Positions 29,981 to 50,060 of a stretch of DNA of 64,000 nucleotides are shown here, one piece after another. Under the pieces are notes generated by a model. It was not told the DNA's origin. It did not search any database and saw nothing but the letters and a program-made list of their open reading frames with translations. The DNA lies in assembly GCA_030295235.1 (NCBI GenBank), contig AP026129.1, positions 682,001-746,000 on the forward strand, given 5' to 3'. This DNA is from Fistulifera solaris (lineage: Eukaryota). Both the position numbers and the translations under genes were made by a program. The first letter of the stretch is position 1. Every line of letters begins with the position of its first letter.

Positions 29981-31390
29981 CTTGATTTCGAAAAGAGAGG
30001 CGTAGAATGTTTTGCAATCTACTGTTGGAAGCGACTTGTACGGAACGAACAGAGGCTGTGGCAAGCAATCGGCCTTTCAGCGATCTCTCGAACTCGGACG
30101 CAGTCATCGTTCATCATCAGAATGTGTTTCCAAACGAGATTCACAGCTGAATCAGCACAGATGATGTATGATGTATGGCACAGGTTAAAAAATCCAGCGT
30201 GATCAAAACTAAAAATAGGGGTATGGAGGCTATATTATTTTTAGTACTGTACAACCTTATGTAAAAAATAGACATCAAACAATAAACAATGATTTCGTTA
30301 TGATTTCGTTTACTCTTATGGACTTATCGATTATCGATGATTCTTGAAATAACCGCCAAGACCAATTTTCAAATTTTAATGTACCAGTGAGTTATAAGCC
30401 GATAATCAACCAATCATAGAGCGTTATCGGTCATCGTCAAGTCGTCGAGAGTCGAGACTCGAGACACGCAGAACACGGAACACGGAACTCAAGACTTCAG
30501 TTAGTAATTACGGAGTAGTAATTTATGAGCCGTGGCTGGGTCGTTTTCAAAAGGCTTTTATGGTTGAGGACTGAGGACTTGAGGACGGGGGCGGAGAACC
30601 ATGGGAGAACGGCGAAACGTTGAAAGAGCTCTTTCGTCTTTTGTCCCTCATCCCTCATCATCTCTCGGCTCTCACAGCTAAATACAAAAAAGACCTCGAA
30701 AGGAGTAAAAGATAAAATACCTTTTTTTAATATCTACGCAACATTGAAAACTCAAAAAGGCGGGCTATAGCTCGGGCAAGGGGAAATCTCAACTCCACCA
30801 CACCACCCCGGCCAATAGACATAGGCAACGATTTCCTTGTTTCGATGCGACGTGGTTGCAGGAGTTCATGTCGAAAAGCCTTTTGCATGTTGCTTGATCC
30901 ATCAAAAACTTTATGTGTTAGTGGCTCTTAGACGAACAAACGAGACAACGCCGAAAGTTTGACAAGAAAAAAAACGAGTGTAAGCATGCGGTACTAGTTT
31001 CCGGGACTGCAAGAATAACAACGATTAAAAATCATGCGAAGCAAAGCTCTGTCATTGGTTGAAGACTATTTCGGTCTCGGGTGTGGTAGTTCATAGTAAA
31101 AAGTAACTAAATGCCATTAATTTATCCGGGACTGACAATGAGCTGAGTCGGATCGTAGCCGTCAAAGCTGCTTTTTATAACAGAGTCCTGGTACCGTACC
31201 GGTAATCGTCCTCGCAAAACTTGTTCGTGCTTCTGCTCCTACTTCTGCACTTCGACCATGGAGATGTCATTTGCGCTGTACTTGTACCGGCTCGAACCAC
31301 AGGCGGATCTTCAGGTACATTCATTGGCAACTATACGCTCATCTATCAAACAAGCGCTTCTTTTTCCGCTTCTCCGGCGCACAAAATAAT

Positions 31391-32026
31391 ATGGATATTG
31401 AACAAGAGCGAACGCCATTAACCAACACGGTTGAGAATCCGTACCAAGCAAGCGGCAGCAACAATACACCGGCGGCCAAAGCATTGCTAAGATTGCAACG
31501 ACTGGTGTATTTGATTTTGAGTTTGTTTGGTCTCTACAAATTACATTTCTATCGAGCTATTTTCGTTTCTGTTCGAATACGGCACCTTCCTTTTCAATGG
31601 GGTTTGGCTTTGACGATCGGTGCGTAATAAAGTAGACAGGCGTTTGTTTTCCGTATTACTTCTCTCTCTTGCAACGATACCTAACAGATTATCGCTCGAA
31701 TAGCCATGTTCCTCATCAAGGCTTACGTGGAGCTCTATCAGGGTCAATTGCATCAGCAAAGAGTCAATTATCAAAATTTCCGACAAACGACTCATCTGTT
31801 TCTGTTGCTTTGGACTGTGACCAGCGCTTGCTTCTTCGTTGCTTTATGGCCGCATTACAAATGGAATACAATCTTGGTATTGTGTTTACTAGCATTTGGT
31901 GTGGTTCTGCAATTTCTGCTACTCGTCCCCAATCCGTGGGCGCAGAATGCTATTGCTTTGGTGGGGTTGACATTCTTCTTGCAAGAATACGCAGGCTTCG
32001 GGGCCACCCAACGAATTGGAAGCTGA
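31391..32026 (+). CDS. Multi-pass membrane protein, TMEM128-like, 1 intron (31620-31703)
   Basis: Several hydrophobic helices with AYVELY...Y...CFFVALWP motifs. GT..AG intron with a ctaac branch point at 31681. Confidence 0.6.
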
Positions 32027-32201
32027 AGCTGAAAAGTATATGAAATTTTCGACCTTACATTTCCTTTCCGATCACAACAACAGTCACTAGGCCCTCTAAG
32101 CCAGGGTGGCATTCCTTCATTCACACTAAGTAAACCGCCGTAGTAATTTTTCATTGAAAGCTGAGCCTAGTGCTTGATTCTCAATCATTTTATCGAAATA
32201 T

Positions 32202-33313
32202 TTAGTTCAAAATCAACCCACTGACACCGTCACGCTCCTCGATGGCATCCCGCAAAACGCTGGGAGTTAAGTACAAGTACTGGATGTTAAAGCCTTCGGA
32301 GACAATTTCGACACGCATAGTCGTTAAAGTTGGTGTCAAGACTTCGATTTGCCGTGAAAAATTCGCAAATGTATCCCATGCTTCCGTGGGAGTAAACCCA
32401 ACAAAGATTTCATAAAGATGTGTTGTATTCATATCGACCAAATCAAACGATCCTGCACCTTCCGGTGAGGCAATTCCAGCATGAACGTCATAAAAACCTG
32501 CTACTGGGATATCCCATTCGAACTCAAACCAACTGTTTAGGACCAAGTTTCCAAAATACGCCGGAACGTCGCCGTCAGCGGGAACCAGGCTAACTAAGCT
32601 CGAGTTGGTGACATCTTCGATTCCCACTTTTCGATGCAAGAAAGGCTGTCGACGATTGGCCGGATCTACGGGTGTCAAACTTCCGCTGAACTCGCTAGGG
32701 AACATCGTAATCGTTGTCAAAGTGGAAGTGTCGCTTTCTTCAAGGGTCTCGATGATGCTGGGCATCATGGTGAGTGTTGGTACGCTTGTGCTCGGAGCCA
32801 TGCTGATAGTTGGCGTCATACCTACTGTCGGCGTAGTTGGTGTCAATGGAGTTGGCCTAGGCGGTACAGCCGCGCCTGTTTCTGTCGTTGTCACCGTCGT
32901 TACAGGTGGAACGCCAGGAGTCGAGTTCGCGGCGGTGGCGTTCGATGTTGTGGTAGTGGTTGCCGTCGCAACTGGCTCAGGTGTCGCCCCAGTAGAATTA
33001 GAAATGGAACCTGTAGAAGTTGTGGAATTAGTCGCTACCCCTGTTGCTGTTGGGCCTGACGTGGAGATAGAAATAGGTTTTGGTAACGAAAGCCCACTTT
33101 GTTGTGTAATATTTGTAGTAGTTGTACCTCCGAGAGGCTGCAACGTTGTTGTTGCCATCAGGGCATCCGAATCAGCTGTTGCGTTCGGCGATGCGATCAC
33201 GGTTTCACCCCGGGCATCGTCCGGTAAAGAAGGTCGCAAAAGCTCTTTTGCGCGCTACAGGAAGCCACCAATAAGCAGAGCACCAACACTCTTGAAAATC
33301 TTCCCTGAAGCAT
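32202..33313 (-). CDS. Secreted Thr/Pro-rich protein with one C-terminal CBM6-like module (cluster gene A)
   Basis: Signal MLQGRFSRVLVLCLLVASCSAQ from ATG 33313, with a frameshift in the T-run near 33240. Mucin-like stalk, then NSWFEFEWDIPVAGFYDVHAGIASPEGAGSF...W...GFNIQYL. Confidence 0.75.
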
Positions 33314-34606
33314 TCCTTCACTGTTCACTGAGCTAGTAGACCTATCGATTGGTGCACTTGATTCCTTTCGCAATAGATATACGTCACTCTTCTGCCAGAA
33401 TTGCTTTCTTGTTCGATTCGTTGTGCAGAGGCTTTCTAGAGAATAGAGGAGGAGTGCCAGTGCATTGGAAAAAGGTCTTCCGACGACTTTTAAAAATGTG
33501 CAAGACTTCAGGACTTCGTCCTTCTATGTTCTTTGGGGTCGAAGTCGCCGGTCGCGGAAGAAAGGTTCACGGCCACTTTAATTAAATCCTAGACAAAGCA
33601 GTGACCCTAATGTGTGGCCTGTGACGTCTATGGTTTATGACTGTGACTGGTACGGTACCTGGTCACTGGTAATCAAGCGTTCTGTGTTTGGTTTCTGATT
33701 TCTGATACACTAGAGGCGGTACGGTATCAAGTAGGATCTGTCATTCGTCATTCGGTCAAAGTCATAAGTCATTGTTTCGGAGTATCTCTTAAAGTTAGTT
33801 CTACGAAGTAGCAGTACGAACTAACCTCACGAGCAAGTATTCGTGACTCATAACTCATCACAGTCACGGAAGACTGAAAATCGGGCAAATGAATTTTCGA
33901 CATGAATAAATGAAGGGGTGCCTTGCAGCTATTATGGAAAGCAGCTCTTTACGGATTCCTTACAGGGAGGAAACAGAGAGGAAACAGAGAGGAAACAACA
34001 ACTCTTGCGTTCATTTGCTTATGAAGGGTTTATTTAGTAAACACTCGCGCACGAAAGACGTTGCAAAATGTAAGGTCTCGTTGTCTCGTTAAGATCCGTT
34101 CATGACCCATAACTGAAATCCATTCGCGACAGACCTGTTTATTATAGAACATCTAGTCTGACAAATCCAGGATCCTGTTCAAATGGGAGCCTAAGTGCAT
34201 CGTTTATGCCTCTTTCCGAATCGGATTAGCTGACGAAATTTGTGGATCGGAAGCGTGGAAACCTAAAGCATTTGGGAGTGGCCGCGCATCCATTGTGTGA
34301 TGAAGATTCTGCATCTAGCAAACTTATGAATGTTTTGAGCTTTGAAATGTTCGATACAGCTAAGATTCAAACTCTAGCTGGCTATCGTCTTGTCCTGATA
34401 CGAGAGCCAAGCCCACTGATCAATTTAACTGGCCAACGCCTATAATCGCAATTTTTGATACGAATCAGAGGGCGAGCGCGGACCGAAAATGTAAGAAAAT
34501 CACCATCACTTGTGATGGTAGAGCGCGCCAAAACTTAACACTGAAATGGGTATCAATCCTTAATCGCTTCTTTAAACGCCTTTTCCAATCGAATTGTAGT
34601 CCGTAC

Positions 34607-35957
34607 TCACGAGTCATTGTTACGTTCAGCAATCGCTTCTTTGAGATCACTGGGTTCAAAATACAGCCATGCCAAATTGAATCCAGGTGTTGTTACATTA
34701 ATGGAGTACAAACGCTCACCTTGTTCCAATAACACCTCTTGCGTGATTCGAGTATACTGATCCCAGGAACCAGACACAGGAAAGTCTTCAAACGAAGCAA
34801 TCCATTTCAACGACTGTTTCGAGGATGATGTACCATTAGGCAACCCCACTACATTTGTCGCCGTCACCGTTGACATAGAAGTTGCTGTGTTTGCACTCGT
34901 TGGACCTACGCCAGGCCTTTGTAACGTGGTTGGCGTTGCTATTGCAGCCGTCGCTGTTGCCGGCATGTCTGTAGGCATCTCCTCAACACGCATCAAATCA
35001 AAAGATCCGTCCCCATTCAAACTGGCCAAACGTACATGAACATTGTATAAACCTGTGATGGGCACGGACAATCGAAATTGCATCCAACTTGTCCAATTCA
35101 ATTGGCCGAAATTGCTGCGTCCCTCTCGAATAGACTGTTCAACTACCAAGTCATCACTTCCTGCAATGAAGTCGTCGATTGTAATGAACCTGTCAAAAAG
35201 GGCACTCGACCCAATGCGGGAGCAGTTGGTTTAGGACGTTTGGGGTTCAAACTTGTCATGCCGGGTACGTCTCGAATGTTTCCTGCAATGAAATAGAAAA
35301 ACATCCAGTTGAAACCGCCTTCACGGACGACAGCGCGCAGCTTAGCCGTATCCTGATTTAAAAAGAGGGAAGGCAAAGTCATATTCGACGTGATCAGCAT
35401 TGTTGCGTATCGTTGCCAGGATCCTGTAGCATTGACATTAGTCACGTTGGCCAACAAGACGAGTTCTTCAGTTCCAGTTTCGTTCTGAATCACATGATAA
35501 AGCAGAAAAGAACCATCACCGGAAGGACTAGAATACCTCATTTGCAATTCGTAAAAGGATCTCGCGCCTTACTGGTCGACGAGAAGCCTTTCAAATCGAA
35601 CTCGAAAAAATGAGACAATTGCAGTTCACTCAGACTTGAATGAACTTCTTTGGACCCTTCCACCACAATCCCTCGGCTTCTGTTGGTTATCTGTTCCGTC
35701 GTAATGAAATAAAAGGGATAATCGCGATTTTTGGAGGCCTTTTTTTCTGCGGATGGTTTCATAGGTGAAATTGGGGCGGTTGTTGAGTTTGAAAGCGATT
35801 GGTTTGTGAAGGAAGAAGCCGGGCTTTTTAAAGGCGTTGTTACGGAAGTGTTGGTTGTACTAGAAGCATTGCTCATCCCGAGACTCGTCGTGATCGCCGG
35901 TCGCAACGATTGAGCCAGGGCGGACTCCAGAACCATGAGCAAGTACCACAGTTTCAT
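34607..35957 (-). CDS. Secreted protein with two CBM6-like modules (cluster gene B); two frameshifts (near 35565 and 35195)
   Basis: Signal MKLWYLLMVLESALAQSLRP. Module 1: YELQMRYSSPSGDGSF...TGSWQRY...GGFNWMF. Module 2: SWMQF..PITGLYNVHVRLAS..GDGSF...SGSWDQY...GFNLAWL. Confidence 0.75.
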
Positions 35958-36977
35958 GTTTAATTTGCAGCTACGGAACAACGCGGCGCGTGACGTCAAT
36001 TTGTTGTGTTGCGCCATTTCAGTTATGCGAAGCGAAGCAGCAATTACAATTGAAGAAATAATGAAGCCCCGTGAGCGGTTTGTCAACTTGACGTTTTGTG
36101 ATCACTGCCAAGCTTCCTCTTCCTGGAACCAGGGGAATGGTCTGTGTGCTGTGTGAGGGCTTAGATCGTATGAGAATTTTTGAAAAACGATTGGCACACT
36201 TAGACTGTATATTCAAAAATGTACGAGGTACCAAATACCATAATGATGTAACGATGACCGACAAAAACAAAGGAGGGACTTTTCTCAACGAATGCTACGG
36301 AGTACATGCTTCCGCCAACAACAGCACGCCCAACTATGAGTGACGAGGCCTGAAAACCAATCGCAAATCATAGCGACAATCGTTGGCAATTGTCTCTGGA
36401 ATGAGGCAACAAAATAATGGAAGTATCGTGATTCCGCGTTTTGATTATGACTGAAATCCAGTCTTGGCTCAACGCCGCCCACGTTTGAGTCTACAGTGAA
36501 ACCCTCATGTTTGCGAGGTTTGTCAAAGACGACAAATAAGTATTTTCATCAAACATAGCCTAGAATCATTACCGTTACTTTCGAAAACTGAAAATAAAGT
36601 CTAGTTTAGGGCTACTGCACGAGAAACTAGAATCGCGCGGATCGCCTGCAACGTCTTAGTCCGGGACTCGATTTCGATGCCAATGACGCGAGTCGCGAAT
36701 ACGTCAGTCCGCTGACGCTCCTACATACCGACAGACGATCCACTACAGAAAACACAACACTCGACCTTCCACGTGTGGTCGATCGAACAGGATCGAGTTG
36801 CCAGAGGTTGAAACGAGGAGGATCGATCAAATAATTGTTCAAAAGAAGTTGCCATGGAACCGCATTGTTTGCACTTTCCTTGTTATTCACGACGATTCTA
36901 ACTTCAATTTTTAATCATCTTACCGTATAGGCTGACTAGTCTGCAGTTCTAAGAAGTTTCCGAAAGAATTTGTAGCG

Positions 36978-37878
36978 ATGCAGCGAAGAAGATCCATATT
37001 TGTTTCATTTTTGCTTGTTATACTTTCCACGACGTTGGCTTTTGTTATTTCCCCTCGTGCCTCTCGAAGTAATACCTGCCGTCTGTATGCAGCTGATCCG
37101 CAGAACTTTCGAGAGGCTGAAGTTCTGGGATTGAAATACATGCAAGATGGAGAATATGAGAAGGCACTGAACGGTGAGTGAAATTATCGTGCGTCGGATT
37201 CGCCGGAATCAACAGTAAGGCAATTCAGACTCACAAAGCCCTCCTTGAATTCGTTCCTGACTTCTTGCGAAACGCGTCTCTTTCATTATTGAATATGCAT
37301 ACAACCGGGCTTTCTCACGACACTCAAACAAAAATAACTAAACGATTGACACATACATCCATCATTGCAGCATTTCAAAAGGACTGAAATTACCGGGAAG
37401 CCGCGTGGATGTGGTCAGAACACAGCGCGTGTCGGGTCCGTCGCCAGTCGGTGGTGCAAAGGGAGGTACCAACTCGGAAACGGTGCAATCTTTGGATGAA
37501 TTTGAAATTCAAGCGGCTTATTACAATATGGCTTGTGCACAGGCTCAACTGGAACGATACGACGACGCGTTAGCGTCGTTACGGGTGGCTTTAGAGAATG
37601 GTTTCGACAATCTGGCCACTGTAAGATCCGACCCAGACTTGGCTATTTTACCACAAACAGATGCATCAGCTAAATTTGACGCACTATTGGAAGAATTCGA
37701 ATCCAAAAGCAACAACAACGGAGAAGGGGGCGGTTTCTTTGGCCTGTTTCAATCGAAAAAAAGTAAAACTCTCGCAGTTCGCACCACGCCTTCAGCTCTC
37801 AATAGGCGTTTCCAAGTCCTGCTGGTGTCATCGATGATCACTCGCGCTGAAACATATAGAATCAAAATGCACGCTTGA
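36978..37878 (+). CDS. Plastid-targeted TPR protein (MET1-like TPR domain), 1 intron, frameshift near 37380
   Basis: Signal peptide cleaved before Phe (TLA^FVISP). Intron 37174-37370. AYYNMACAQAQL...ALENGFDNLATVRSDPDL. The true stop may be near 37765 if the terminal A-run is miscalled. Confidence 0.75.
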
Positions 37879-38258
37879 GTGTTCTAATCTAGTCGCCCAC
37901 TCATATAACAGACTATGTCGTAAGCATTAACTATAGGTTTCGTCTCACCATTGCTGACTCGTTTTGTCGTGAAAACTCTATTTTGTATGATGTTTTCACT
38001 TGAACAGAAAAACCTGGAGATGCGGTGTTTTCACATCCCCAGAAATCTGCGCGTGTGATGTTGTCACTCATACAGAAAAACTGGGAGTGTAGTCGCACAG
38101 AAAGTGCACACGCAACACGGAACCAAAAGGGACCTAAGTGACCGAGAAAGCAGGAGACGCCACAACCAATAAAGAAAGCACTCAAGTCCTCGACTTCGAC
38201 AATAGTCTTACGTCTTAAGTAGCTTACATTCACATAAATGTCTTTAGAATTGAAGTAC

Positions 38259-38549
38259 GAGTAACTATACAGCAATGGATGGCATTTCGATTCTCTAAAC
38301 TCTCCCACACTCACTGGCGCGATCGGTTTCCTTGACCTTGGGGACTACGGCGAAGGTGCTTTTGAAGCTATCGATATGGCGACCCAAGAAATGTACGTGA
38401 CGGTAGACCGTTTGCCTGTCACACAAACCTAGGAGGCATGGGAAATTGCGTTTACATCGGTGACTTTGCCGAGCGGTCCCATTTCTTTGATGATTCGGGT
38501 ATTGCAAGAACGCTGGAATATGGAGTCCTTGCGCTTAAAGGTTATTTAA
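38259..38549 (+). pseudogene. Decayed CBM6-like module (cluster remnant)
   Basis: Manual translation: SNYTAMDGI / GAIGFLDLGDY-GEGAFEAIDMATQEMYVTVDRLPVTQT*EAWEIAFTSVTLPSGPISLMIRVLQERWNMESL. It has an internal deletion of about 20 codons and a TAG at 38430-38432. Confidence 0.75.
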
Positions 38550-38706
38550 TTGTAACAAGGGCTAGAGAAGCTATTGCTAATTACATCGAGCAATAACGAA
38601 TATTGTTCGTATACATTCACTACCTGGTATGTGTTTTTATTGTTTTTCTCTATAAGCTGCGACACGGTTTTGATAAAAAGCCTGAAAATTATCATTGGCC
38701 GATTCC

Positions 38707-39488
38707 TTACTTGCGCAAACGTAACAGTAATCCTTTGTTCGATTTGATCTTCTTTTGCAACTGAATCAATCCGTACAAAAGAGCTTCAGCTGTCGGAGGA
38801 CATCCGGGCACGTAAATGTCGACAGGGACAATCCTATCACAGCCACGAACAATGGCGTAACTGTAATGATAATAGCCACCTCCATTCGCACAAGAACCCA
38901 TCGAAACGACCCAACGCGGTTCCGGCATTTGATCGTATACTTTACGTAATGCTGGAGCCATCTTGTTCGTGAGAGTGCCAGCGACAATCATGACATCGGA
39001 TTGACGGGGACTAGCGCGAAACACCATACCAAATCGTTCCATATCGTATCGCGATGCGGCGGCGTGCATCATTTCGACGGCACAGCATGCCAAACCGAAT
39101 GTCATGGGCCACAAACTGCCCTTGCGGGCCCAATTGACTAAATCATCGACTCGAGAAATGGCGTATTCGACGTTGTCTGCGACAGGAACATTGCCACCAC
39201 CAGTGAGCATTTCTTCAACATTGTCGAGTTTTCCCAGCTAAAATAATGATTAAACAGTACATTCAAGTGAAGAAGCAGTTGTAACGAATAAACAAAATGA
39301 TTAAAGGATAAAAATAACATGTTAATGAGCAAGCAGTTGTAACAAATAAGGAAAATCAATCGAAAATCGCAGACACGTACCGCGGAAGTTTGACTTTGTG
39401 CCGTTCCCGCCATGGCACGCGACGCCAAGTAGCACGATCCCTTGCATCGCAAAGATGAGTTTAGCATTAACTTGTGTGCAGCCAACAT
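38707..39488 (-). CDS. NDUFS7: NADH:ubiquinone oxidoreductase PSST/20 kDa subunit, mitochondrial precursor, 1 intron (39238-39380)
   Basis: [47 protein letters not shown]; an N-terminal presequence exon starts at ATG 39488. Confidence 0.97.
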
Positions 39489-39897
39489 GATTGATATTAC
39501 AAATAATAATTGCGTACGATCGCTTTGCTTTGTTGCGTAATGTCGCTGTATCATCGTTGTTGTCGTCGTCGCGGCGGCTGCTTGAAGCGAAGGACGAACG
39601 AATGCAACGTGACTCCTTTTCAATCACGATAATAATAATGTCCTTCTTCCTTCGTGTCTCACTGTCTCACATTAAAACACTGCGTTGGATAGTATCATCC
39701 ACCGCCAATTTCGGCCAATGAACTGTCATGACATGCTACTGTTTTATATGACCCTTTTGTTATCGGTTTCCAAAGGAAGCCCAACCTTGAAATGATAGGC
39801 TTCGGGCGACATGTGCCAATTTCTCGGTCACAATCATCTCCCCTTTTGTTTATTCATTCAATAAAAGAAAAATCATTCTTCGTGAAAGAGAACCACC

Positions 39898-41169
39898 ATG
39901 GCACTGCAACTCTCAGGAAACAATAGACAAGCCATGCTCCAGATCCTTTTGATACTTGCTTTCTGGTGCGCGTCCTCGGCGACAGCGCACAGCGAACGCG
40001 ACTTGAGTTGGGGCTCACACAATGGAATGTTTTATTCGCTCATTTCCGCCACCAATTACGTCGAGTCGACTGGAGAAGTCGAAACAATTACAACATCAGA
40101 TGGTATTCGAGCGGTAGGCTTTCTGGATCCTGGTGATACGATGGGTTATGCGTTGGATGTTCCTATCGCCGGTATGTATTCTTTACTTCTTCACGTTGCC
40201 AGTCCGGCTGGCGAAGGCTCCTTGACTATAGAGAATGCCGAAACAGCGGAAGTCTATGCTACTTTTGACGAATTGCCATCTTCGAGTGGAAATTGGTCGT
40301 ACTATCAAACTACAGGCGAAAATATCACATTACCTCAAGGTCAGCTCGTCTTGCAAGTGAGTGTCCTTGAATCTGGTTTCAACTTAATGTGGCTCAGTCT
40401 CGAACAGCTTGCGGAGGAACCTTTCGTACCGGCCGAGTCCGCTGCACCTGTAGCACCAGTAGCTCCGGTTCCTTCTGAACCGGTTGCCCCAGTTCCGACG
40501 GAGCCAGTTGCTCCAGTTCCGACGGTGCCTGTCACACCTTCTCCCTCACAAACACAGACGACGGCCCCGACTATGGCACAAACACTAGCTCCGACTGTAA
40601 AACAAACTCCAACAACAACCCCCGCCCCTACCATGAAACAAACTCAGGCGCCGACGACTGCTCCAACGATGAAGCAGACTCCAGCTTTGACGGCTGCTCC
40701 GACGGCGTTGACGCTAACTGAAACGAACCCTCCTATTGTTTCGGAACTATCTTTGTACACGGAGCAATGTTTTTCGGCTGGAAACTTCTTGTCGTACCAG
40801 GGATGCGACGAATTGCCACGGGGTGTTGGTTTTGTGGGACCCTTTGTTACTTCAACAATGATTACGTATCCCTTCCAAGTGCCTATCGCAGGAGTATATC
40901 TGCTTCAAATGAGTGTGCAGGGAATGGGAGGAGTGAAGGTGACTTGTGAATCAACTGGAAAGCAATACGCGTACATCGAGTCTCTTCCAATGTATCGTAC
41001 CACGAATACAACTGACGTCTGGTATACCGCGTCCAGCGTCATGTCTTTAGATGTGGGAAGTCACAAGTTGCAAGTCGAAGCTGTAGTAGGAGGATGGAGT
41101 ATCCAAAGCTTGTGCTTGCTTCCTGTAGCATCGCATTTCGTGAGTTGCTCGGTCGATGCAGCACGCTAG
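39898..41169 (+). CDS. Secreted protein with two CBM6-like modules and a Pro/Thr repeat linker (cluster gene C)
   Basis: Signal peptide, then RDL. VGFLDPGDTMGY..PIAGMYSLLLHVASPAGEGS...GNW...GFNLMWL. PVAPVP and TAPTMKQT repeats, then a second module ending GGWSIQSLCL. Confidence 0.85.
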   Translation: MALQLSGNNRQAMLQILLILAFWCASSATAHSERDLSWGSHNGMFYSLISATNYVESTGEVETITTSDGIRAVGFLDPGDTMGYALDVPIAGMYSLLLHVASPAGEGSLTIENAETAEVYATFDELPSSSGNWSYYQTTGENITLPQGQLVLQVSVLESGFNLMWLSLEQLAEEPFVPAESAAPVAPVAPVPSEPVAPVPTEPVAPVPTVPVTPSPSQTQTTAPTMAQTLAPTVKQTPTTTPAPTMKQTQAPTTAPTMKQTPALTAAPTALTLTETNPPIVSELSLYTEQCFSAGNFLSYQGCDELPRGVGFVGPFVTSTMITYPFQVPIAGVYLLQMSVQGMGGVKVTCESTGKQYAYIESLPMYRTTNTTDVWYTASSVMSLDVGSHKLQVEAVVGGWSIQSLCLLPVASHFVSCSVDAAR

Positions 41170-41554
41170 ACGCAAGCTAGAGATACGTGATACGTCACAA
41201 GTCACAAGGAGGTCACAAGAATTTGACCCTCTCGATTCTTTACTGTTAATGATCCTAAATACGGAGTAACTTGTAACTTCTTCTTCTCAAAAGTCATTTA
41301 CTATTTACTGTAGTCATGACGTCATGACTTCAAATCATGATGTACCATGTACCTTTCATCCTTCCTAAAAGCAGTACTGTACTGAGTTCGAGAATTCGAC
41401 GTAATTTTTCCGTCCTCGAAGAATACGAAAACTTAATGCCATAATCATCCACGATCGGCACGCACTCTTTCAATCCACAATCTTTCTTCCACTCATTTGA
41501 TTGTCTATTTTTCCACTCAATTCGAAACTTCTATTTCAAAAATCGATCTAAAGA

Positions 41555-43511
41555 ATGAGGCTTCTAACAACGAGGATAGTGCTGTCGCTCTTTTGCTATG
41601 GAAAAGGGTGATGGCTGTCGAGTGGCATCCACCTTCTCAACAAAGACATGGGCAACTGCGAGGCAGAGAAGAGCGTAAGCTCAGATGGGGACTCCATGAT
41701 GGTCTCTTTTACAATGTCATCTTAGCTGCGAATCACATTTCTGTGCAAGGAGATGTCTCCATTCAAGAATCGTCCTTGGATGAACTTCCGTATGTGGCAT
41801 ACCTTGACGCTGGCGATGTACTCACATGCAGAGCTGTTTTGCAATCAATCGGGAAATATCGGCTGGAACTCCGAATTGTAAGTCCTTCTGGAGAGGGTGG
41901 CACACAACTGCGCAATTTTCAAAACGATACGCAAGTATACCCTTCCCTTGATACAAAGTATGTTGCCCGCCTCAGGCGATTGGAATTCGTGGCAAACAGT
42001 GGAGGCGACATTCAAACTGCTAAGCCTCAAGTTCAATCTCGACTTCGTCGTTGTTGAGGCAGGTCGCAACTTGCTTTGCTTATCCCTTGAACTGCTCGAA
42101 GAAACCGATAGTACCGCAAAGCTAGCAGAGCCTCCTGTCACTGCCCCTACTATTGAGCCACCTCCTACAACCTCTCACATGAATGACACCCGCATAGTGT
42201 CTTTGGGCGCTGGTGAATACACCATTGTCGATGAAGGAGCGCAACTGTCACTCGAAAACATCGCGTTGAAGCTGGATACCAGCTCGTGGGCTGTTTGTAG
42301 TGTTCAAGTTCCAGTAGATGAAAAAGTATCTAAGGCAAATGAGAATGACTCTCACTTCGCCCACGGGATGCAGAAACCAAAGATTTTTACGCAAAAGAAT
42401 CAACAATTGATTCTTGGCGCAATACCAATGCTGCTCTTGTTTTGGAAGCAGGGATGCATGATGTGAAGATCCATATTGTGAAGGATCGTGGACACTATCT
42501 TCTGTATGCCTTGACGGAATCGATTGCGTGAATGTGCACTATCTTGAGTCCATAAACATCAACACTACAGCTCCAACGAATCCAAAGGAAACCGTCCCAA
42601 CTGCGGCACCGATGGTAACAACTGATGAGTCGTCGACAGCCAACATGGCACTAACAAGGCCGGCGACATCAACACCGACTAAAACATCTCCGTAGTCCAA
42701 AAATATGGAAACCATGGCACCAACGACTCCGACAGAAGCTGCGACATCAACACCAGTTGTAATATATTCGGAGTCTAGCAATACAGACACGACGACTTCA
42801 ACGAGCCCAACCGAAGCTGCAACACCAGTCGTAACATCTGCTGAGTCGGACAATACAGGCACCATGTCCCCAACGAGCCCAATCGAAGACCCGCCAACAA
42901 TAGCACCAGCCGTGGTGACCATGAAATCAAGCATTACCAGCACTATGACCCCAACCAGTTCGTTACAACCTTTTTACATCAGCACGACCCCTCGAAGCGC
43001 CAACAAAAGCAACAAACAGTTCGCAGACGGAGGCATCCGTCGCTTCGTCGAATAACATGGCCTCCTTAAAGTCCCAGGAAATCGTCCTGCAGTTTTTAGC
43101 CGACGAAGCATCTTCCATGTACGGAGCTGTTGTAGAAGAGACCAGGTAACGAGAATACAACCTGCATAAGACAGCTCGATGCGTACGATTGGGTCCGCTA
43201 TCCCATGTCGACACTCGTCGGAGGCAATTACACAATGAAAAATCGTGTGTCCACCGCTTCAGGAACCGGCGCCTTCGATTTAATCGATTATGGCACGAGA
43301 ATTACTTTACACTTCGATGGAATGTTTTCCAGCCACAGGGGACGGCAATGGGGAAACCGTCAGTAACCGTGTCACTTTGCCGGAAGACGACGTCCGCTTA
43401 ATGATTCGTGTACGAGAATCCGGGTGGATCTATTCGTGGTTTCGGTTTAGCGAGACTTTTGATTTAGCCCCCGATTTTGAAACCATCTCACATGCAAGCT
43501 TTGTGACCTGA
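41555..43511 (+). pseudogene. Degenerate three-module CBM6-like gene (cluster gene D)
   Basis: Signal start at ATG 41555, RKL motif, VAYLDAGD...SPSGEGG...SGDWNSWQT. It has several frameshifts plus substitution stops (for example TAG at 42693-42695). The last module ends VTLPEDDVRLMIRVRESGWIYSW. Confidence 0.75.
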
Positions 43512-44140
43512 TAAGGGGCGCACATCATTCGACACTCTATTGGAGTTAATGCATGCTTTGAATCGTTGTGCCGGAGTGTTCGATATGGCTTTTGCCACAA
43601 TTCCTTCGTGTCCGCCTTAATGATTATTTCTTCATTATTTGTTGATACCAGGTAGGCGATTGACAATAAAATAAAAGAGAGTTGCGATGGAACGCTTCGC
43701 GTCAAAAACGATCGACATGGATTCGTGACTGAAAGTTAGCCCGATCTCAAATATTGCCTTCCACTTCCGAGAACACTTGGGACTACAAAGTAGACGGCAT
43801 GAGGCATGATTTGCGAGAAAATCCGAAGTACGTAGTACCGGTAATCCCCTACAAAACGGAAACCAGAATTACACGTATAATTTTTTCCGGAGTAATTAGT
43901 AATTGATACTTTGAATCGTAATGGTCCTGTCTTTGGCGTAAACGTACTGTGATAAGTGAGAGGACCTTCATACTTTCTACAAGGTATTCACATTTCACCA
44001 GTCGACTTTGGGCCTAAAATTATTCTACCCCGCAGTACGGTTATGCGAAACGCCTCCATCCTCCATCACCGACATCTCGACATTTCAATCTTCACTTTTC
44101 ACCGCACATATTTCCGAAAAGCCACAAAGGAACACCAATC

Positions 44141-46126
44141 ATGAATAGCAAGAAAAATATGCAAGCGGTCGCATGCCTTTTGCTGTTGGCTGCACTAATA
44201 CCATCATCTCAGGGCTCGACGCTATTTCTACGGCGGCGTTTACAAGAGAGCGCTTGCCAGTTTGGCTGCCTCGAACCGCGGATCGCGTCGATCGCCGGAA
44301 GTGCTTTTGTCGAGCAAAATGGAGGCATCGTAAATGAAATCGAGCATCTTATCACACTGCAAACCAGCGACTGGGTTGTTTACAATGTTACAGTTCCCTC
44401 CGACGGTTTTTACTTGCTGCAAACGCAGCTTTCGTTCGGCAACGGGTCGTCCTTGATCATGGACGATCCTCAATCATCCAAGCAATACGCCACGATTACT
44501 GGAAATCCCACTCATGCCAACAGTATCGTGTCCTTACGATCAGGTATCCAGCAAATAAGACTATATGCGGAACAGGGCCCGATACAAGTGAAATCTCTTC
44601 TTGTCGACATTATCGATTCCATGGACGAACAAGCGAATAACGTTCCTCCGTCAGACCAGGAGCCTGAGATGAATGTTGGCAGTACCGATACCGTGTTGGA
44701 ACTAGTAGAAGTCGCCTCGGATGAGCCATTGTTATTAGAAACGAGTGAAGATGTTGACGGCGACACAAGTGAGCCAGAAAGTTACGATTCTTCCTACGAA
44801 CCCAACAGTGAGATAGAGTCATCACCGGTCATTGAAAATGGAGGCAACTCAAGCGATCCAACAAGTGCATCCAATTTCTCATCTACTCCTGTTTCCTCCC
44901 AACAGCTGAAACAGCCTGCTATTGTTATGATGACTGCGTCCAGCTATTCATCGATGAACGGTGTTGAACTTGATAACGCGACTCACCATGGTCTTCCTTC
45001 CACAAAGCTACTTGATGCAAATGATTCAATATTGTATTCTGTGACTATACCGAAAGCTGGCATTTATGAAATGAAAATGAGCGTTAATAGTCTCGCTGGA
45101 GAAGGTTCTTTTGATTTTGTAGATGAAGTTACGGGAACTTTGTACACCTCTGTCACTGGTTTACCGACTGCAGTTAACGCAACTAGTTGGGACACTGTAT
45201 CAGCGGAAATTAATCTAGCGAGCGGGCCGCAACAATTGAGAATTAATGTAACCGAAGGTGGGTGGTCCTATACGTGGATAAGACTGACAGAAAGATTGGA
45301 TCAGAATAGCACGGGCACTACTGATCAACCAGCAGATCAGACACAGTCCAATACCACGATAGACCTGGCTCAACAGCCTCCACCGCCAGATGATCCATCA
45401 CAAACGGTAACGCCAGCAGATCCAGCGCAAGCGGCATCACCAGCTGACTCAGCACAAGCGGCAACACCAGCTGACCCAGCACAAGCGGCAACACCAGCAA
45501 ATCCAGCGCAAGCAGCAAGCCCAGCTGACCCGGCACAAGCGGCAAGCCCAGCAAATCCAGCGCAAGCAGCAAGCCCAGCTGACCCAGCACAAGCGGCAAG
45601 CCCAGCTGACCCGGCACAACCGGCAAGCCCAGCGGATCCAGCACCAGTAGCAATTCAAGGGGATAGTGGCAAGCCTGCGACTCCTTCTAACCTTTCTCAA
45701 AGTTCAACTGATTTGCAGTCCGCGTCACCTGAACCAGATCCACTTTTAGCAAGCTGTGACGCTGTTATAGAGGCCGCAAAATATACCACAATGTCAGGTA
45801 TCCAAGTACAAGGGTCAACTGAAAGCATGGACAACATTGGATGGTTGGATCCTGGAGATTGGGTCGAATATTCTGTCTCCATTCCGTCAGCGGGCAGCTA
45901 TACCATGGACTTCCGTGTCGCATCGCCTGAAGGCTGGGGAAGTTTTGATGTGCTCAACGGTAGCGCAGCACTGACATCAATCCCAACTCTGCCAAAATCA
46001 AGCGGATGGCAAGACTGGAAGACCGCATCTCGCAAAGTTTCACTGTCATCGGGTCCTACCAATCTTCGTATCAATATCTTGACTGGAGGTTTCAATTTAG
46101 TCTGGATATGCTTGACTCGCGCGTAA
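44141..46126 (+). CDS. Secreted protein with three CBM6-like modules and PADPAQAAS repeats (cluster gene E)
   Basis: Signal peptide, then RRRL. The C-terminal module NIGWLDPGDWVEYSVSIPSAGSYTMDFRVAS...SGWQDWKT...GGFNLVW is a near-consensus CBM6. Confidence 0.88.
   Translation: MNSKKNMQAVACLLLLAALIPSSQGSTLFLRRRLQESACQFGCLEPRIASIAGSAFVEQNGGIVNEIEHLITLQTSDWVVYNVTVPSDGFYLLQTQLSFGNGSSLIMDDPQSSKQYATITGNPTHANSIVSLRSGIQQIRLYAEQGPIQVKSLLVDIIDSMDEQANNVPPSDQEPEMNVGSTDTVLELVEVASDEPLLLETSEDVDGDTSEPESYDSSYEPNSEIESSPVIENGGNSSDPTSASNFSSTPVSSQQLKQPAIVMMTASSYSSMNGVELDNATHHGLPSTKLLDANDSILYSVTIPKAGIYEMKMSVNSLAGEGSFDFVDEVTGTLYTSVTGLPTAVNATSWDTVSAEINLASGPQQLRINVTEGGWSYTWIRLTERLDQNSTGTTDQPADQTQSNTTIDLAQQPPPPDDPSQTVTPADPAQAASPADSAQAATPADPAQAATPANPAQAASPADPAQAASPANPAQAASPADPAQAASPADPAQPASPADPAPVAIQGDSGKPATPSNLSQSSTDLQSASPEPDPLLASCDAVIEAAKYTTMSGIQVQGSTESMDNIGWLDPGDWVEYSVSIPSAGSYTMDFRVASPEGWGSFDVLNGSAALTSIPTLPKSSGWQDWKTASRKVSLSSGPTNLRINILTGGFNLVWICLTRA
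45412..45645 (+). repeat. Coding 27-bp tandem repeat (about 9 copies of PA[DN]PAQAA[ST])
   Basis: ccagctgacccagcacaagcggcaagc-like units repeated in frame. Confidence 0.9.
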
Positions 46127-46254
46127 CATAAGCCAAGCAGATTAATTATTGCGTTGAATCTTCATGTATTTATAACTTGACGGGTGACTTGCGCTCGACT
46201 TTTTCCGTGAAAAAGTGCGTAGCGATTTCTTCCGCTCACACACTGTAACATGTT

Positions 46255-48731
46255 TTATCGCACTGCCGTGAAACACAACCAGGCTAAGTTCCAGCCACCG
46301 TCGGATATATTGATGCGAAGCGTTTGTGGTCCAGCGGGAAGCATGACATCCGTTGCGTCGGTGTACCAACTTTGCCATCCACCTGACGGAGTCAGAGAAT
46401 TGACTGCACCATACACTTGACTCATGTCTTGGGATGTCACTTGAAAGCTTCCACCTCCATCGGGGGACGCGATGCGATAACTCATCCTATATGTTCCTGC
46501 AGTCGGCAAATTGACGTCGTACTCCAACCAGTCACCAGGGTCAAACCAACCCACATTTGTAAGTCCTTCTGTTGATGCCTCCGAGTCGACGCCAGACATT
46601 GCGCGGTAATTGTTCGCGGGGATGACAACATCACATGAGCCCGCTTCGGAGGAAGGCAAAATGGGATTGGATGGAGCTGAGGGATCAGAAGGTGGTGCTG
46701 GCAAGGCTGGATTTGCGGGAGATGCTGGAAGAGCTGGGTTTGCGGGAGATGCCGGGAGGGCTGGATCGGCGGGGGATGCTGGAAGAGATGGGTCGGCAGG
46801 TTCTGCTGGCAAAGCAGGATTAGCGGGCCCTGCGGGCAAGGCCGGATCGGAGGGCGCTGCGGGTGAACTGGGTAAAACTGGTGCACTTGGATCTCCAGGA
46901 CCGCCTGAATTCGACGGTCCAGGATCGCCTGATGTTGGCAAGCCAGGTGCACTAGGCTTTCCACTATCAGGGGGTACATTACCTCCGCTATTCGGGTCGC
47001 CTGGTGCTCCAGCGTTGGGTGCTCCAGCGTTGGGTACTCCACTATCAGGAGGGACATTAGGTCCACTATTTGGCACTCCAGTGTTAGGACCGCTCGGAGC
47101 TCCACTATTTGGCACTCCACTATTGGGACCGCTTGGCAATCCACTACTAGGTAATCCATTATTTGGCATACCGTTGTTTGGACCGCTAGGTAACCCATTA
47201 TTTGGTACACCGCTGTTCGGACCACTAGGTAATCCATTACTTGGGAAACCATTGTTCGGTCCACTTGGAAATCCACTATTTGGCGTACCGCTATTTGGAA
47301 CGGCGCCAAGGTTCACATTACTTCCACTGCCTGTGCCTGTATTTGAATACGGTGCCGCGGGATAACCACCATTGTTTCCACCGCCTGTCCCAGCATTGGG
47401 ATACGGTGCTGCGGGATAACCACCAATATTATTTCCACTGCCTGTCCCTGCATTTTGATACGGTGCGGCGGGATAGCCCCGATATTTCCACTACCAGTTA
47501 CTCCATAGTTATAACCACCCCCACTGCTGTAGATGTGATTGTGAACATGAATTTCGGGTTGCGTGAGTCCCCCACAACCGCAGCCTCCCCCACACCCACA
47601 ACTTTCGCTAGAGCCCTGACTCGACTCCACGTCTTGTAAACACAACGACGCCAAATTCCAACATCCGTTCAAAACGCGCACTTGCAGAGTATGAGATCCT
47701 GCAGAAAGGTCCATCACAGTATTCACATTCGTCCACATTCGAGAGTCTCGAATATTCTGTACTACTGCGTAGTGTTGATTGTTTTCCATATCCCTTACTT
47801 CCAATGCTCCACCGCCCTGTGTATCCATAGCGCTCAATTGAAGCATATAGGGCCCATCGTACGGTGCCGTGATCGTATACGCGGCCCAGTCACCCGCGTA
47901 CAGTTTGACAAAATCTTTGTCTTCCGTCACGTCGCTACCATTCATCGAGATGTAATCAACAGCGGCCACCGATTCCAAGCAAAGGACTTGCGGAGGTAAA
48001 GTGGTGTTCGACATCTGTTCTCGCAAAGTAGGTGCGGCTGTCGCCGAGTTTTGTTCGGAAACAGTAGGCATGGCCGTGGATACATTAGGCTCTGACAAAC
48101 TCGGCTCGACGATTGATGTATTTTGCGACGAAGCATCGGATATTGACGAAGTTACGTTTTGCGATGGCGAATCCGGCGAGACGGAAGACTCGTCCAGTGA
48201 CGGCGTGTCGAGTTGCTGAAGCGAGAGCCATTGCAAATCACATCCTGATTCGATCACTTCTATTTTCATCACCGATGTTCCTTCCGGCAGCGTCATATTC
48301 CTTGATACAACCGACCACTCATTCCACTCTCCCGTCACGGGTAATTCATCGATGGTGTCGTATATCTCATCCGTCTCCATGTTCTTGACAGATAGTGACC
48401 CTTCGCCGTCAGGGCTAGAAACATACATTTGTAATTGATATACGGCAGTCGAAGGCAAATCGATGCGATACGCCATAAAATCTCCACGATCGAGTTGTCC
48501 CACGGTTCTTAATCCTTCTGATGATGCCTCGTTAACGGTAACACCATTCATGAGCGTGAAATCGGCCGCCGAGACGAGCGTAAAGAATTGATCCTTGTGA
48601 CTGCCGAGTGACAGCCCTCTGTCGCGAAGATTTCCTGTCGAGAAATCCTCTTCTCGTGCTGTGGATGCAGTAAGAGCGGTAGTTGCTATAGCACTGCAAA
48701 GGCAAATTCGCATTAGGAAGCTTCTTGTCAT
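46255..48731 (-). CDS. Secreted protein with three CBM6-like modules and Gly/Pro/Asn repeat blocks (cluster gene F); frameshift near 47478
   Basis: Signal peptide, RGL motif, two modules, CGCGGGCGC. Adding one G to the G-run joins GYPAAPY x3, PNSG/PNNG repeats, PA[DN]PALPAS repeats and a final module NVGWFDPGDWLEY...SGGWQSW...GGWNLAWL. Confidence 0.85.
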
Positions 48732-49143
48732 TGTTTCTGGTCTTTAATGTGCCCGTCTCGTGTTCACTTTTGTTTTGCGAACAAAAAGTATCGCTGAAAA
48801 GTTGCCTCCAATAGGCTTCCGTTTGGGAAAGAATTTGGTGATGCATGACTGCTTCCTACTGTCACGTCGGAAGAGACATAGGGCGTGATTGACAAAAATT
48901 GTGACCATCGTTCCGTTGCATCCGCCACAGTCCTCTGCAAGGTGTGGGAAAAAGTGTACAATCACGTAGACCCCCGTAGAGAAATGTACCAAGCAGAGGT
49001 GCGTTCCCGTGTCTCCCTGTAAAAAGTCCTGTGTCCCAGTGACGAGTACTCTCTCAAAACCGATCGGCAAACCACAACGTCGACGACTTCTCTTCTCACT
49101 TTTCTCGCGTGGCTTTTCTTGTCACCCTCTAGTGTCAACAAAG

Positions 49144-50060
49144 ATGATGACACGAATATCGTTTCTTCTATTATTTTCCATTGTATCAAGAGCAGCATCT
49201 TTTCAAGTTGGAATCGCTGTCATTCCAGGAGTCGACTCGGAGCGCCCATCCAAAGTGTGCCAAGATGCGTATTTTGTCAAAGAAATAACGACGAATGATG
49301 AGAAACTGTTACTGGTCGGCGTCTTGGATGGACACGGCAAAGATGGACACATCGTTTCGCAATTTTGTGCCGAGCGACTGCCTGTTTTCGTAGAAACGCC
49401 AAAGGGCCACCTCCGGCGGATTTTCTCGAACGACTTTACACACTCGGTCGAGCCACTCGCGACAACGATTCACTTCATCCGAAACACCGAATCTTGATCG
49501 ATGCGTTTCATCGCGTCCATTACGATGCCATGCAGTGTCCGACATGCCCGGCCGGACGAAGTGGCACTACCTGTGTGGTTTGCTGGATCGAACCAGACGA
49601 AGTGCACGTGGCGTACGTAGGAGACTCGCGAGCCATTCTCATCGACGGCGATACCATTACGCCATGGGCCACGGAAACGATAGTGCGTAAATTACCGAAA
49701 GAAAAAGAACGTATTGACGCCTGTGAGGGTCGTATCGATGGAAACGGAAATGTATGGTACGGACCCGTAGCGATTGCCATGACCCGCGCACTTGGGGACG
49801 CTGCAATGTTACGCGCCGGCATTTTACCCACCCCGATCACGACAACATTCCCACGCAAGAAAGGGACCGTCTTGGTTCTAGCAACCGACGGTATTTGGGA
49901 CCAATTGTCGAATGATCAAGTTTTGGAATTGGTAAAAAGCAACATTGCAAATACATCCTTGGCTGCCGAAGCCGTTAGCAAGCGCGCACGACAAAAATGG
50001 ATAGGAGACTTCATTGAAGAAAAAGCAGATGATATTACATGTTTAGTGGTGACTTTGTGA
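49144..50060 (+). CDS. PP2C/PPM-family protein phosphatase with an N-terminal signal peptide; frameshift near 49395
   Basis: CQDAY, GVLDGHG, SGTT, AYVGDSRA, AMTRALGD, LATDGIWD, DDITC. Confidence 0.9.

Follow-up and report, generated by a model that had tools for sequence, protein, structure and literature searches.

A tandemly duplicated cluster of enzyme-free, putatively secreted CBM6 proteins in the raphid diatom Fistulifera solaris

The stretch of DNA analysed here, in the following called the window, comprises 64,000 nucleotides of the Fistulifera solaris genome assembly GCA_030295235.1 (contig AP026129.1, positions 682,001 to 746,000). Between 32.2 and 48.7 kb the window contains a cluster of five genes (A, B, C, E and F), one multi-frameshift pseudogene (D) and one decayed relic, all of which carry modules of the carbohydrate-binding module family 6 (CBM6). 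The coordinates of these loci and of their modules are given in Table 1. An earlier note, which was made from the sequence alone, had described the locus as five apparently functional genes and two pseudogenes with about 15 CBM6-like modules, and had suggested that the encoded proteins are secreted, non-catalytic scaffolds which might cross-link glycans and serve in extracellular polymeric substances (EPS), in the gliding trail, in the organic layer of the frustule or in bacterial binding. To the following reading we assign a probability slightly above one half (about 0.55): the cluster arose by tandem duplication and encodes secreted lectin-like glycoproteins without enzymatic function, which would act in the cell-surface coat or in the EPS of this raphid diatom.

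The identity of the modules was determined by a Pfam scan of ten open reading frame (ORF) translations from 32202-48731. The gathering cut-off of the CBM_6 model (PF03422), 28.9 bits, is exceeded by four of these ORFs, namely C (55.2 bits, 1.1e-14), E (124.4 bits, 4.3e-36) and the C-terminal and N-terminal ORFs of F (83.3 and 73.7 bits; E-values of the two F ORFs 2.1e-20 and 2.2e-23). Two more stay below the cut-off (C-terminal ORF of B, 22.6 bits; second ORF of D, 13.5 bits), and no CBM match was obtained by Pfam for the remaining four (A, the middle and the N-terminal ORF of B, and the first ORF of D). At every position where the models CBM_35 and CBM_35_2 (PF16990 and PF18099) match as well, CBM_6 scores higher, for example in E with 124.4 versus 38.7 and 28.2 bits and in the C-terminal ORF of F with 83.3 versus 18.5 and 33.0 bits. 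The modules are therefore assigned to CBM6 rather than to CBM35, as had been presumed.

A profile of our own was built from seven clear modules and run on the six-frame translation of all 64 kb (E<1). It marks 20 stretches, 19 of which are located within 32265-48599, and the lone match outside of the cluster (16669-16737, about 7 bits) is at chance level. One module is counted in A, two each in B and C, and three each in D, E and F, which gives 14 modules plus the relic and agrees with the earlier count. The module of A reaches 63 bits with this profile. The module profile is similar to several solved CBM6 structures: 8zvk (1.5e-45), 1uxz (CmCBM6-2, 4.4e-28) and 5fui (the CBM6 of the laminarinase LamC, 2.3e-19). 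No paper which uses the name of the best match, 'AaBglC' for 8zvk, was found in the literature, and a protein atlas query with C returned only generic CBM6/35 clusters at 0.84-0.85, which is under the level counted as meaningful, and listed no diatom taxa.

For the two modules missed by Pfam the fold was predicted with AF2, using an alignment of the nine window modules only. The model of E1 reaches a predicted local distance difference test (pLDDT) score of 92.5, and its best Foldseek match is 1uxz (E 7.6e-9, template modelling score 0.75), followed by 5fui. The module of gene A, modelled as a fragment without the first strand, has a pLDDT of 79.7 with a core at about 90, and all of its top Foldseek matches are CBM6 structures (2y8k, 1uxz and 5fui, root mean square deviation 1.6-1.8 Å). 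According to these models both are CBM6 beta-jelly-rolls which can be superposed on solved modules.

Some of the reading frames in the cluster are interrupted in the window, and four sequencing runs (X1 to X4), aligned as contigs on 31000-50000, are informative in that respect. The depth of X1 is even (about 17-40) over the cluster genes and the spacers between them and its contigs are up to 24 kb long, so that X1 behaves as genomic DNA. The coverage of X2, X3 and X4 is patchy; a 143-nt CT..AC joint in the NADH-dehydrogenase gene occurs in all three of them, and at 38603 a loose poly(T) end is present in X2 and X3. In the following these three are treated as RNA-like runs. Single-base differences between X1 and the window occur in A/T runs; nine of them are listed in Table 1 (eight bases missing from the window and one extra), and there are six more. 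Because the corrections at 33237, 35194 and 41590 each lengthen a frame in a way that is sensible for this family, the window and not X1 is taken as wrong. Thus the assembly carries homopolymer errors which result in false pseudogenes. F. solaris is described as an allopolyploid that was first sequenced by pyrosequencing (10.1101/2021.11.10.468027).

In gene A, an additional A behind 33237 lengthens the frame to an ATG at 33313 (MLQGRFSRVLVLCLLVASCSAQ). In gene B, an additional A behind 35194 joins two ORFs across the middle of a module. A second break of the B frame in the window is located at a T4 run in 35541-35568; an intron at the GTAAG of this region was considered and rejected, since it would remove residues which are aligned to the module core and would be shorter than 40 nt. 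The frame of gene F breaks at about 47490-47500 in a G run, where the window is one base short in comparison to the adjacent GGYPAAPY repeat unit, and past the break 411 codons stay open, up to a high-scoring module and the stop. A protein search with the first 380 residues of F, limited to proteins of 259-826 amino acids, gave no match, the window's own model included, and is taken as no evidence on whether F is a single gene. We think that the breaks at 35541-35568 in B and at 47490-47500 in F are probably further homopolymer errors of the assembly.

Pseudogene D is of another kind. An additional T behind 41590 gives an ATG at 41555 with a signal-like start, but in a tblastn comparison with a relative of 558 amino acids (P0055; P numbers designate proteins of the collection searched) D falls into six pieces with 42-76% identity per piece. 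The junctions between the pieces are not located at homopolymers, and X3 contigs (41721-42270 and 42459-43272) span two of them without gaps. Due to the six pieces, the position of the junctions and the gapless RNA-like contigs D is regarded as a real pseudogene which is apparently still transcribed; an assembly artefact was considered and rejected in view of the junctions and of the agreement of these contigs with the window. The relic was recognised by our own profile in two parts (38349-38426, 14.7 bits; 38436-38540, 23.7 bits) and by tblastn with P0055 (38349-38546). Seven loci, in our reading with D and the relic as the two pseudogenes, are present as the earlier note had stated, but B and F, counted there among the intact genes, carry frame breaks in the window. 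The absence of introns from the cluster genes is corroborated: no spliced joint lies inside of them, and the only GT..AG-type joints are found in neighbouring genes (31618/31703 and 39237/39381).

Table 1. Positions of the cluster loci, their modules and selected surrounding features in the window
Feature	Position	Strand	Description
Gene A	32202..33313	-	ORF 32202-33158 plus X1 correction; one diverged CBM6 module, core 32265-32555
Gene B	34607..36017	-	Three ORFs; Met candidates 36017, 35957 or 35936; Ser/Thr-rich spacer; two diverged modules
Module B1	35296-35559 plus upstream strands	-	
Module B2	34655-35197	-	With Pro/Thr-rich insertion
Relic	38265..38546	+	One CBM6 module; in-frame stop 38430-38432 and internal deletion; between two unrelated genes
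Gene C	39898..41169	+	423 amino acids; predicted signal peptide, RDL, C1 40018-40407, Pro/Thr/Ala-rich spacer, C2 40750-41124
Pseudogene D	41555..43454	+	Signal-like start, RKL, three modules in pieces, frames 1,2,3,1,2,3
Gene E	44141..46126	+	661 amino acids; predicted signal peptide, RRRL, E1, acidic/Ser-rich spacer, E2, repeats, E3
Module E1	44285-44596	+	Very diverged
Module E2	44906-45292	+	
Module E3	45749-46120	+	
Gene F	46255..48731	-	ORFs 47313-48731 and 46255-47169; stop-to-stop frame 46258-47490; predicted signal peptide, RGL, three modules
Module F1	48213-48599	-	
Module F2	47628-47987	-	
Module F3	46261-46647	-	
NADH dehydrogenase 20-kDa subunit gene	38603-39554	-	PF01058, 1.2e-29
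Hybrid histidine kinase	7923-10637	+	905-codon stop-to-stop frame; HisKA, HATPase_c, receiver
Globin-domain ORF	27908-28642	+	PF00042; facing the next ORF; E-values of the pair 1e-11 and 9e-13
Globin-domain ORF	29417-30076	-	PF00042; facing the preceding ORF
Homopolymer differences between X1 and window	33237, 34492, 35194, 37376, 37755, 38008, 41590, 48782, 49400		Listed from the X1 contigs

RNA-like contigs are present on parts of A (as a variant), C, D, E and F; in the case of gene C, X2 contigs cover 40041-40602 exactly and in addition 40647-40977. The cluster is therefore probably transcribed. Since contig depth cannot rank genes, only the presence of transcripts is claimed, and nothing is concluded from those parts of the stretch, most of B among them, which have no X2-X4 contigs. 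The A variant in the RNA-like contigs is 90% identical to the window sequence (38 differences in 399 bases) and is probably the homeolog. Within the module, 19 of the 26 listed differences are synonymous and seven are not, which indicates that this module, although missed by Pfam, is under purifying selection.

Signal peptides were judged by eye and by Kyte-Doolittle hydropathy (19-mer). The N-termini of C, E and F are clearly hydrophobic, with maxima of 1.5-1.8, and the same holds for A after correction. The assumption that all proteins of the cluster start with a signal peptide is thus supported for C, E and F, for A only with the one-nucleotide homopolymer correction and the ATG at 33313, and it is weak for B. 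Hydrophobic 19-mers outside of the N-termini, hydrophobic C-terminal tails and lysine clusters are absent from the cluster proteins. The lysine content of A, C, E and F is only 0.5-2%, and B has no more than trivial K..K pairs. In line with the earlier note, neither Pfam (ten ORFs) nor hydropathy revealed a glycoside hydrolase or other catalytic family, a transmembrane segment or a tail of the glycosylphosphatidylinositol type. From these features the cluster proteins look secreted and non-catalytic.

Within about 25 residues after the predicted signal peptide an RXL tripeptide is found in C (RDL), D (RKL), E (RRRL) and F (RGL), and it is also present in relatives such as P0005, P0007 and P0112. 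According to PMC5525289, biosilica-associated proteins of diatoms typically have an RXL domain, which is removed by a protease. Between the modules lie spacers which are rich either in Thr, Pro, Ser and Ala or in Gly, Pro, Asn and Tyr, and several of these spacers consist of tandem repeats. These linkers are eukaryotic in style and contain many N-x-S/T sites. The spacer of A, about 200 residues long, is rich in Thr, Pro and Ser (T 18.6%, P 9.4%, S 9.7%), and A and B end with similar short C-terminal tails. For the Pro/Thr/Ser-rich domains of diatom adhesive proteins O-glycosylation is expected, according to the available text of 10.1101/2023.03.06.531300, and by analogy the long Pro/Thr/Ser/Ala/Gly-rich spacers of the cluster proteins are probably O-glycosylated as well.

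Two of the spacers deserve a description of their own. In gene E a 27-nt repeat (PADPAQAAS/T) is present in 9.6 copies at 45386-45644 of the forward strand. The number of repeats differs between copies, because the relative P0002 has 710 instead of 661 amino acids and an X2 contig replaces 45526-45700 by 31 letters. The spacer of gene F (46650-47600, reverse strand) follows F2 and starts with the Cys/Gly cluster CGCGGGCGCGG, after which three Tyr/Pro/Gly units of the GGYPAAPY type, about a dozen Asn/Gly/Pro units and PA(D/N)PALPAS repeats are found. Altogether it has about 280 low-complexity residues (Gly/Pro/Asn/Tyr-rich), and its Tyr-rich composition is adhesive-like.

The sugar-binding site known as cleft A was compared next to these architectural features. 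For CmCBM6-2 (1UXZ) we take the cleft-A residues to be Y33, W92 and N121, with numbers counted in the alignment, and these correspond to the positions 35, 92 and 121 of our profile. For CtCBM6 of C. thermocellum the role of the aromatic residues Tyr34 and Trp92 together with Asn120 in cleft A is stated in the available text of PMC10284105. The triad is complete in C1 (F,W,N), D1 (Y,W,N), E3 (W,W,N) and F3 (W,W,N). It is partial in A1 (N,W,N), B2 (Q,W,N), B1 (first position uncertain, then W,N) and F1 (Q,W,D), and it is lost in C2, D3, E1, E2 and F2. Of D2 only a fragment aligns, with an Ile at position 92. Three of the 11 modules in the five genes (C1, E3 and F3) thus have the full triad, and we infer that each of them binds an extracellular polysaccharide through this predicted site. 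When only the best module per protein is considered for the bacterial-type relatives, 119 of their 141 modules are complete, versus 19 of 40 eukaryote-like modules and 3 of 9 single-frame modules of the window. With a single canonical site per multi-module protein (C1, E3 and F3, and likewise D1), the proposal of multivalent cross-linking through identical sites is weakened. As for the ligand, our best guess is a beta-glucan-type polymer, in view of the closest solved structures and the bacterial relatives.

The loss of the triad from eight of the 11 modules would also be consistent with a scaffold that does not bind sugars at all, i.e. with glycosylated structural or silica-associated wall proteins in which the CBM6 folds act as stiff spacers or bind other proteins. 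RXL propeptides as in the biosilica-associated proteins (PMC5525289, available text) fit such a function. However, exactly one canonical site has stayed intact in every multi-module protein, and Y/W/N is kept in the first module of the D-like relative P0055, which argues for retained sugar binding, and lysine clusters or other silica-targeting features are missing from the cluster proteins. We consider a purely structural function distinctly improbable.

In order to place the modules among their relatives, 1.84 billion representative proteins were searched with the profile, which resulted in 9509 matches with E<=1e-3 and 4167 with E<=1e-10. According to Pfam, 24 of the 36 best matches contain a type IX secretion sorting domain (Por_Secre_tail in 23, CHU_C in one), whereas none was found in the proteins of the window. 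This sorting domain is typical of Bacteroidota. Several of the 36 comprise GH5, GH16 or esterase domains. The proteins E and C themselves are present in the collection (P0001 and P0024). E is related to P0002 (79%) and to the F. solaris protein FisN_16Hh306 (P0003, 80%), and C to FisN_16Hh309 (P0160), which is homeolog-like with 88% identity. From other loci of F. solaris, CBM6-only proteins with three modules each are known as FisN_5Hh050/5Lh050 (P0060 cluster) and FisN_8Hh123/8Lh123 (P0071 cluster). P0007 and P0060 hint at a second small CBM6 cluster elsewhere in this genome.

A set of eukaryote-like proteins could be defined which have signal-like starts and consist of CBM6 modules only, without bacterial domains (P0005, P0006, P0007, P0055, P0161, P0079, P0100, P0112, P0164, P0060, P0089, P0071 and P0075). 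As this set was picked by similarity to the window profile, the inferred label "eukaryote-like" is partly circular. One further eukaryote-like protein, P0051 (1014 amino acids), has three CBM6 stretches and a weak GH5 match (1.3e-14); if it comes from a diatom, the family would also have catalytic members.

Two trees were calculated, and branch support is given as the approximate likelihood ratio test of the Shimodaira-Hasegawa type (SH-aLRT). In a tree of 190 rows most of the eukaryote-like modules group with seven of the window modules (SH-aLRT 98), and E3 and F3 are located among the bacterial modules. A second tree of 79 rows comprises 7 window, 40 eukaryote-like and 32 bacterial-type modules, the latter consisting of the 18 nearest to E3 and 14 taken at random from the other 123. 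It is unrooted, is based on about 130 columns and omits the long branches A1 and E1. All of the 32 bacterial-type modules lie on one side of a branch with an SH-aLRT of 95, and E3 and F3 are nearest to them. Hence the diatom modules do not fall inside the sampled bacterial group, which is consistent with a single origin for them and with E3 and F3 having changed least.

The same tree groups C1 with F1 and the first module of P0055, C2 with F2 and the second, E2 with the third, and E3 with F3 (SH-aLRT 84-92). Together with the similar tails of A and B these groupings point to tandem duplication of whole multi-module genes, followed by loss and reshuffling of modules. As to a possible bacterial source, F3 was used as a pattern to scan genomes of bacteria and archaea; only three loci with 37-38% identity were found, and hence no close bacterial donor at more than 38%. 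A horizontal acquisition of the CBM6 module, suggested as a possibility by the earlier note, is plausible in view of a family that is mostly bacterial, rather than demonstrated, and it would have to be old.

Because the CBM6 domain is mainly bacterial, one might also think of bacterial contamination or a mis-assembly. The cluster genes are, however, surrounded by MCM, PP2C, P-type ATPase, globin and NDUFS7-like genes. One of these neighbours shows splicing of an intron as well as an end of the poly(A) type, the DNA-like depth is even over the cluster, and copies with 80-88% identity are named as F. solaris proteins, not to mention the eukaryotic style of the linkers. The window is eukaryotic nuclear DNA of F. 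solaris or of a very close relative. Contamination is refuted for practical purposes by gene context, intron, depth and F. solaris copies, and an artefact of either kind has next to no weight left.

More serious competitors come from the relatives. The nearest CBM6 modules outside of the diatoms belong to GH5, GH16, lyase and esterase proteins, which would suit soluble or surface-held glycan catchers for feeding or sensing that work together with secreted hydrolases on external polysaccharides, as a counterpart of the bacterial CBM-only surface glycan-binding proteins. CBM-only repeat proteins of marine Bacteroidota are reported to capture laminarin in the available text of 10.1101/2023.09.07.556657, and P0051 couples CBM6 to a putative GH5 domain. 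On the other hand, the 64-kb window contains no hydrolase gene and the proteins have no membrane anchor, and mucin-like spacers and RXL propeptides suit wall or matrix proteins better. A function in feeding or sensing therefore appears unlikely to us.

The history of the cluster offers another possibility. Tandem expansion with a pseudogene and a relic, and the fast divergence of the sites (triad in 3 of 9 versus 119 of 141 modules), follow the pattern of recognition families, and the proteins could be secreted lectins for bacterial or other foreign glycans, with a function in agglutination, defence or recruitment in the phycosphere. The mostly synonymous differences in the A module indicate ordinary constraint instead of diversifying selection, though, and the loss of a site is different from its retargeting. 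We would not expect this explanation to hold either.

The proposal of lectin-like glycoproteins in the cell-surface coat or EPS leads to the following picture. Each protein would enter the secretory pathway via its N-terminal signal peptide, and C, D, E and F would carry a short propeptide ending with RXL, of the kind which is cleaved from diatom wall proteins. The mature protein would consist of one to three CBM6 beta-jelly-roll modules with long, probably O-glycosylated spacers between them. One module of each multi-module protein (C1, E3 and F3) would grip extracellular polysaccharide through cleft A, while the modules without this site presumably bind something else or serve as structural spacers. 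In this way the proteins may decorate or tie together the polysaccharide of the coat or EPS.

A more far-reaching version assumes a lineage-specific set of self-assembling wall or EPS glycoproteins which diatoms derived from bacterial-type CBM6, i.e. a lectin-glycoprotein network which organises the organic coat, the adhesive or the biofilm matrix of raphid diatoms. One lectin site would grip matrix polysaccharide, and additional contacts would be made by the heavily glycosylated spacers and by the retargeted site-less modules, perhaps to glycans on sister proteins or to the organic layer associated with silica. This version is put forward as a tentative idea that is doubtful at present.

Several observations count against the proposed coat or EPS function. 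The signal peptide of B is weak (Kyte-Doolittle 19-mer maximum 1.01), and A and B lack the RXL tripeptide. As a motif of three residues that is common to paralogs, RXL counts as one observation and not as four. With the full triad in so few modules, no sugar site is predicted for the larger part of each protein, and the ligand cannot be read from the family, because the CBM6 structures matched bind xylan, beta-1,3/1,4-glucans or agarose. The RNA nature of X2-X4 is a guess of the tool combined with what we infer from one spliced joint and a poly(T) end, and B and F each keep one frame break.

The closest characterised modules are CmCBM6-2 from the lichenase/endoglucanase 5A of Cellvibrio mixtus (1UXZ, 1UY0) and the LamC CBM6 of Zobellia galactanivorans (5FUI), which have the same family and fold and whose cleft-A residues are kept in C1, D1, E3 and F3. 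Those are, however, single accessory modules on bacterial beta-glucanases, while the modules of the window are enzyme-free, eukaryotic and for the most part without the triad. Bacterial CBM6-repeat proteins do exist, for example a 'carbohydrate-binding protein' of Cellvibrio sp. OA-2007 (WP_062060197.1, 803 amino acids; represented by P0028 with four CBM6 stretches), and CBM6E of Saccharophagus degradans (8J3X/8J3Y) is likewise CBM6-only, so that this architecture in itself is not new. In contrast to the bacterial multi-CBM6 proteins with their short linkers and often type IX or other bacterial domains, the diatom proteins have eukaryotic-type signal peptides, RXL and long mucin-like spacers. 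The same CBM6-only build is encoded at different loci by FisN_16Hh306/16Hh309, FisN_5Hh050/5Lh050 and FisN_8Hh123/8Lh123 of F. solaris.

Among diatom proteins, the CBM32-PL7 alginate lyases of Nitzschia sing1 are a parallel: they are secreted and duplicated, horizontal gene transfer has been argued for them and Vibrio is the sister group, according to the available text of PMC11960938. Like the cluster proteins they combine a bacterial-type CBM with secretion and expansion by duplication, but their CBM belongs to another family, is attached to an active lyase and has a clear sister in Vibrio, whereas the window family has neither an enzyme nor a close donor. Trailins, the proteins of diatom adhesive trails, are secreted and rich in Pro, Thr and Ser, some of their domains are of bacterial origin, and they are defined by CAA and/or GDPH domains (10.1101/2023.03.06.531300, available text). 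No match to these domains with E<=1 was obtained by Pfam in the ten ORFs, although GDPH may have no Pfam model, and CBMs are not mentioned in the available text of the Trailin paper (0 occurrences). With the RXL biosilica-associated proteins C, D, E and F share the RXL motif; the lysine-rich or pentalysine-type clusters of the former are not seen here.

No paper which describes a diatom-encoded CBM6 family was found in the open-access and bioRxiv literature, judged by titles and abstract starts, and CAZyme tables in supplements may list CBM6. To that extent the remark of the earlier note, which did not recognise the cluster as a described diatom family, still stands, though UniRef already gives F. 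solaris relatives the automatic name 'CBM6 domain-containing protein'. Likewise, no endogenous lectin-type component of a diatom coat, adhesive or biofilm matrix turned up in the literature searched. The domain content was already visible in public databases.

The surroundings of the cluster were examined as well. Pfam assigned the neighbouring large ORFs (24 apart from the ten of the cluster) to MCM, PP2C, P-type ATPase, two globins, a protein kinase, a hybrid histidine kinase and the NADH dehydrogenase 20-kDa subunit (NDUFS7-like), and found no glycoside hydrolase among these 24. The NADH-dehydrogenase gene sits in the middle of the cluster and adjoins the module relic. Its 143-nt intron (39238-39380, CT..AC on the forward strand) is supported by three runs, and it has a poly(A)-type end at about 38603. 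A tRNA scan of 31-50 kb was negative, and among the six upstream regions no 9-mer is common to three or more. In the space that separates gene F from the PP2C-like gene, the summed X1 contig depth rises to 1134 (bin 48752-49385) in comparison to the usual 17-40, and many X1 loose ends begin at 48937-48965 and 49007-49021. Due to this excess and the loose ends the short stretch 48937-49021 is regarded as a high-copy element of the genome, of which no second copy is present inside the window.

For the annotation of this genome it should be kept in mind that several of the 'pseudogenes' here are homopolymer errors of a pyrosequencing-era assembly. With regard to the family, the cluster adds one more case in which a eukaryote has put a mainly bacterial carbohydrate module to new use apart from the enzyme. 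As the canonical site was lost repeatedly, the modules provide a natural series on what may become of CBM6 folds after sugar binding in the usual cleft has ended. F. solaris is reportedly transformable and editable by CRISPR/Cas9 ribonucleoproteins. Little is known about the proteins by which diatoms organise their polysaccharide-rich coat, their adhesive and their biofilm matrix, and the cluster gives concrete candidates for them.

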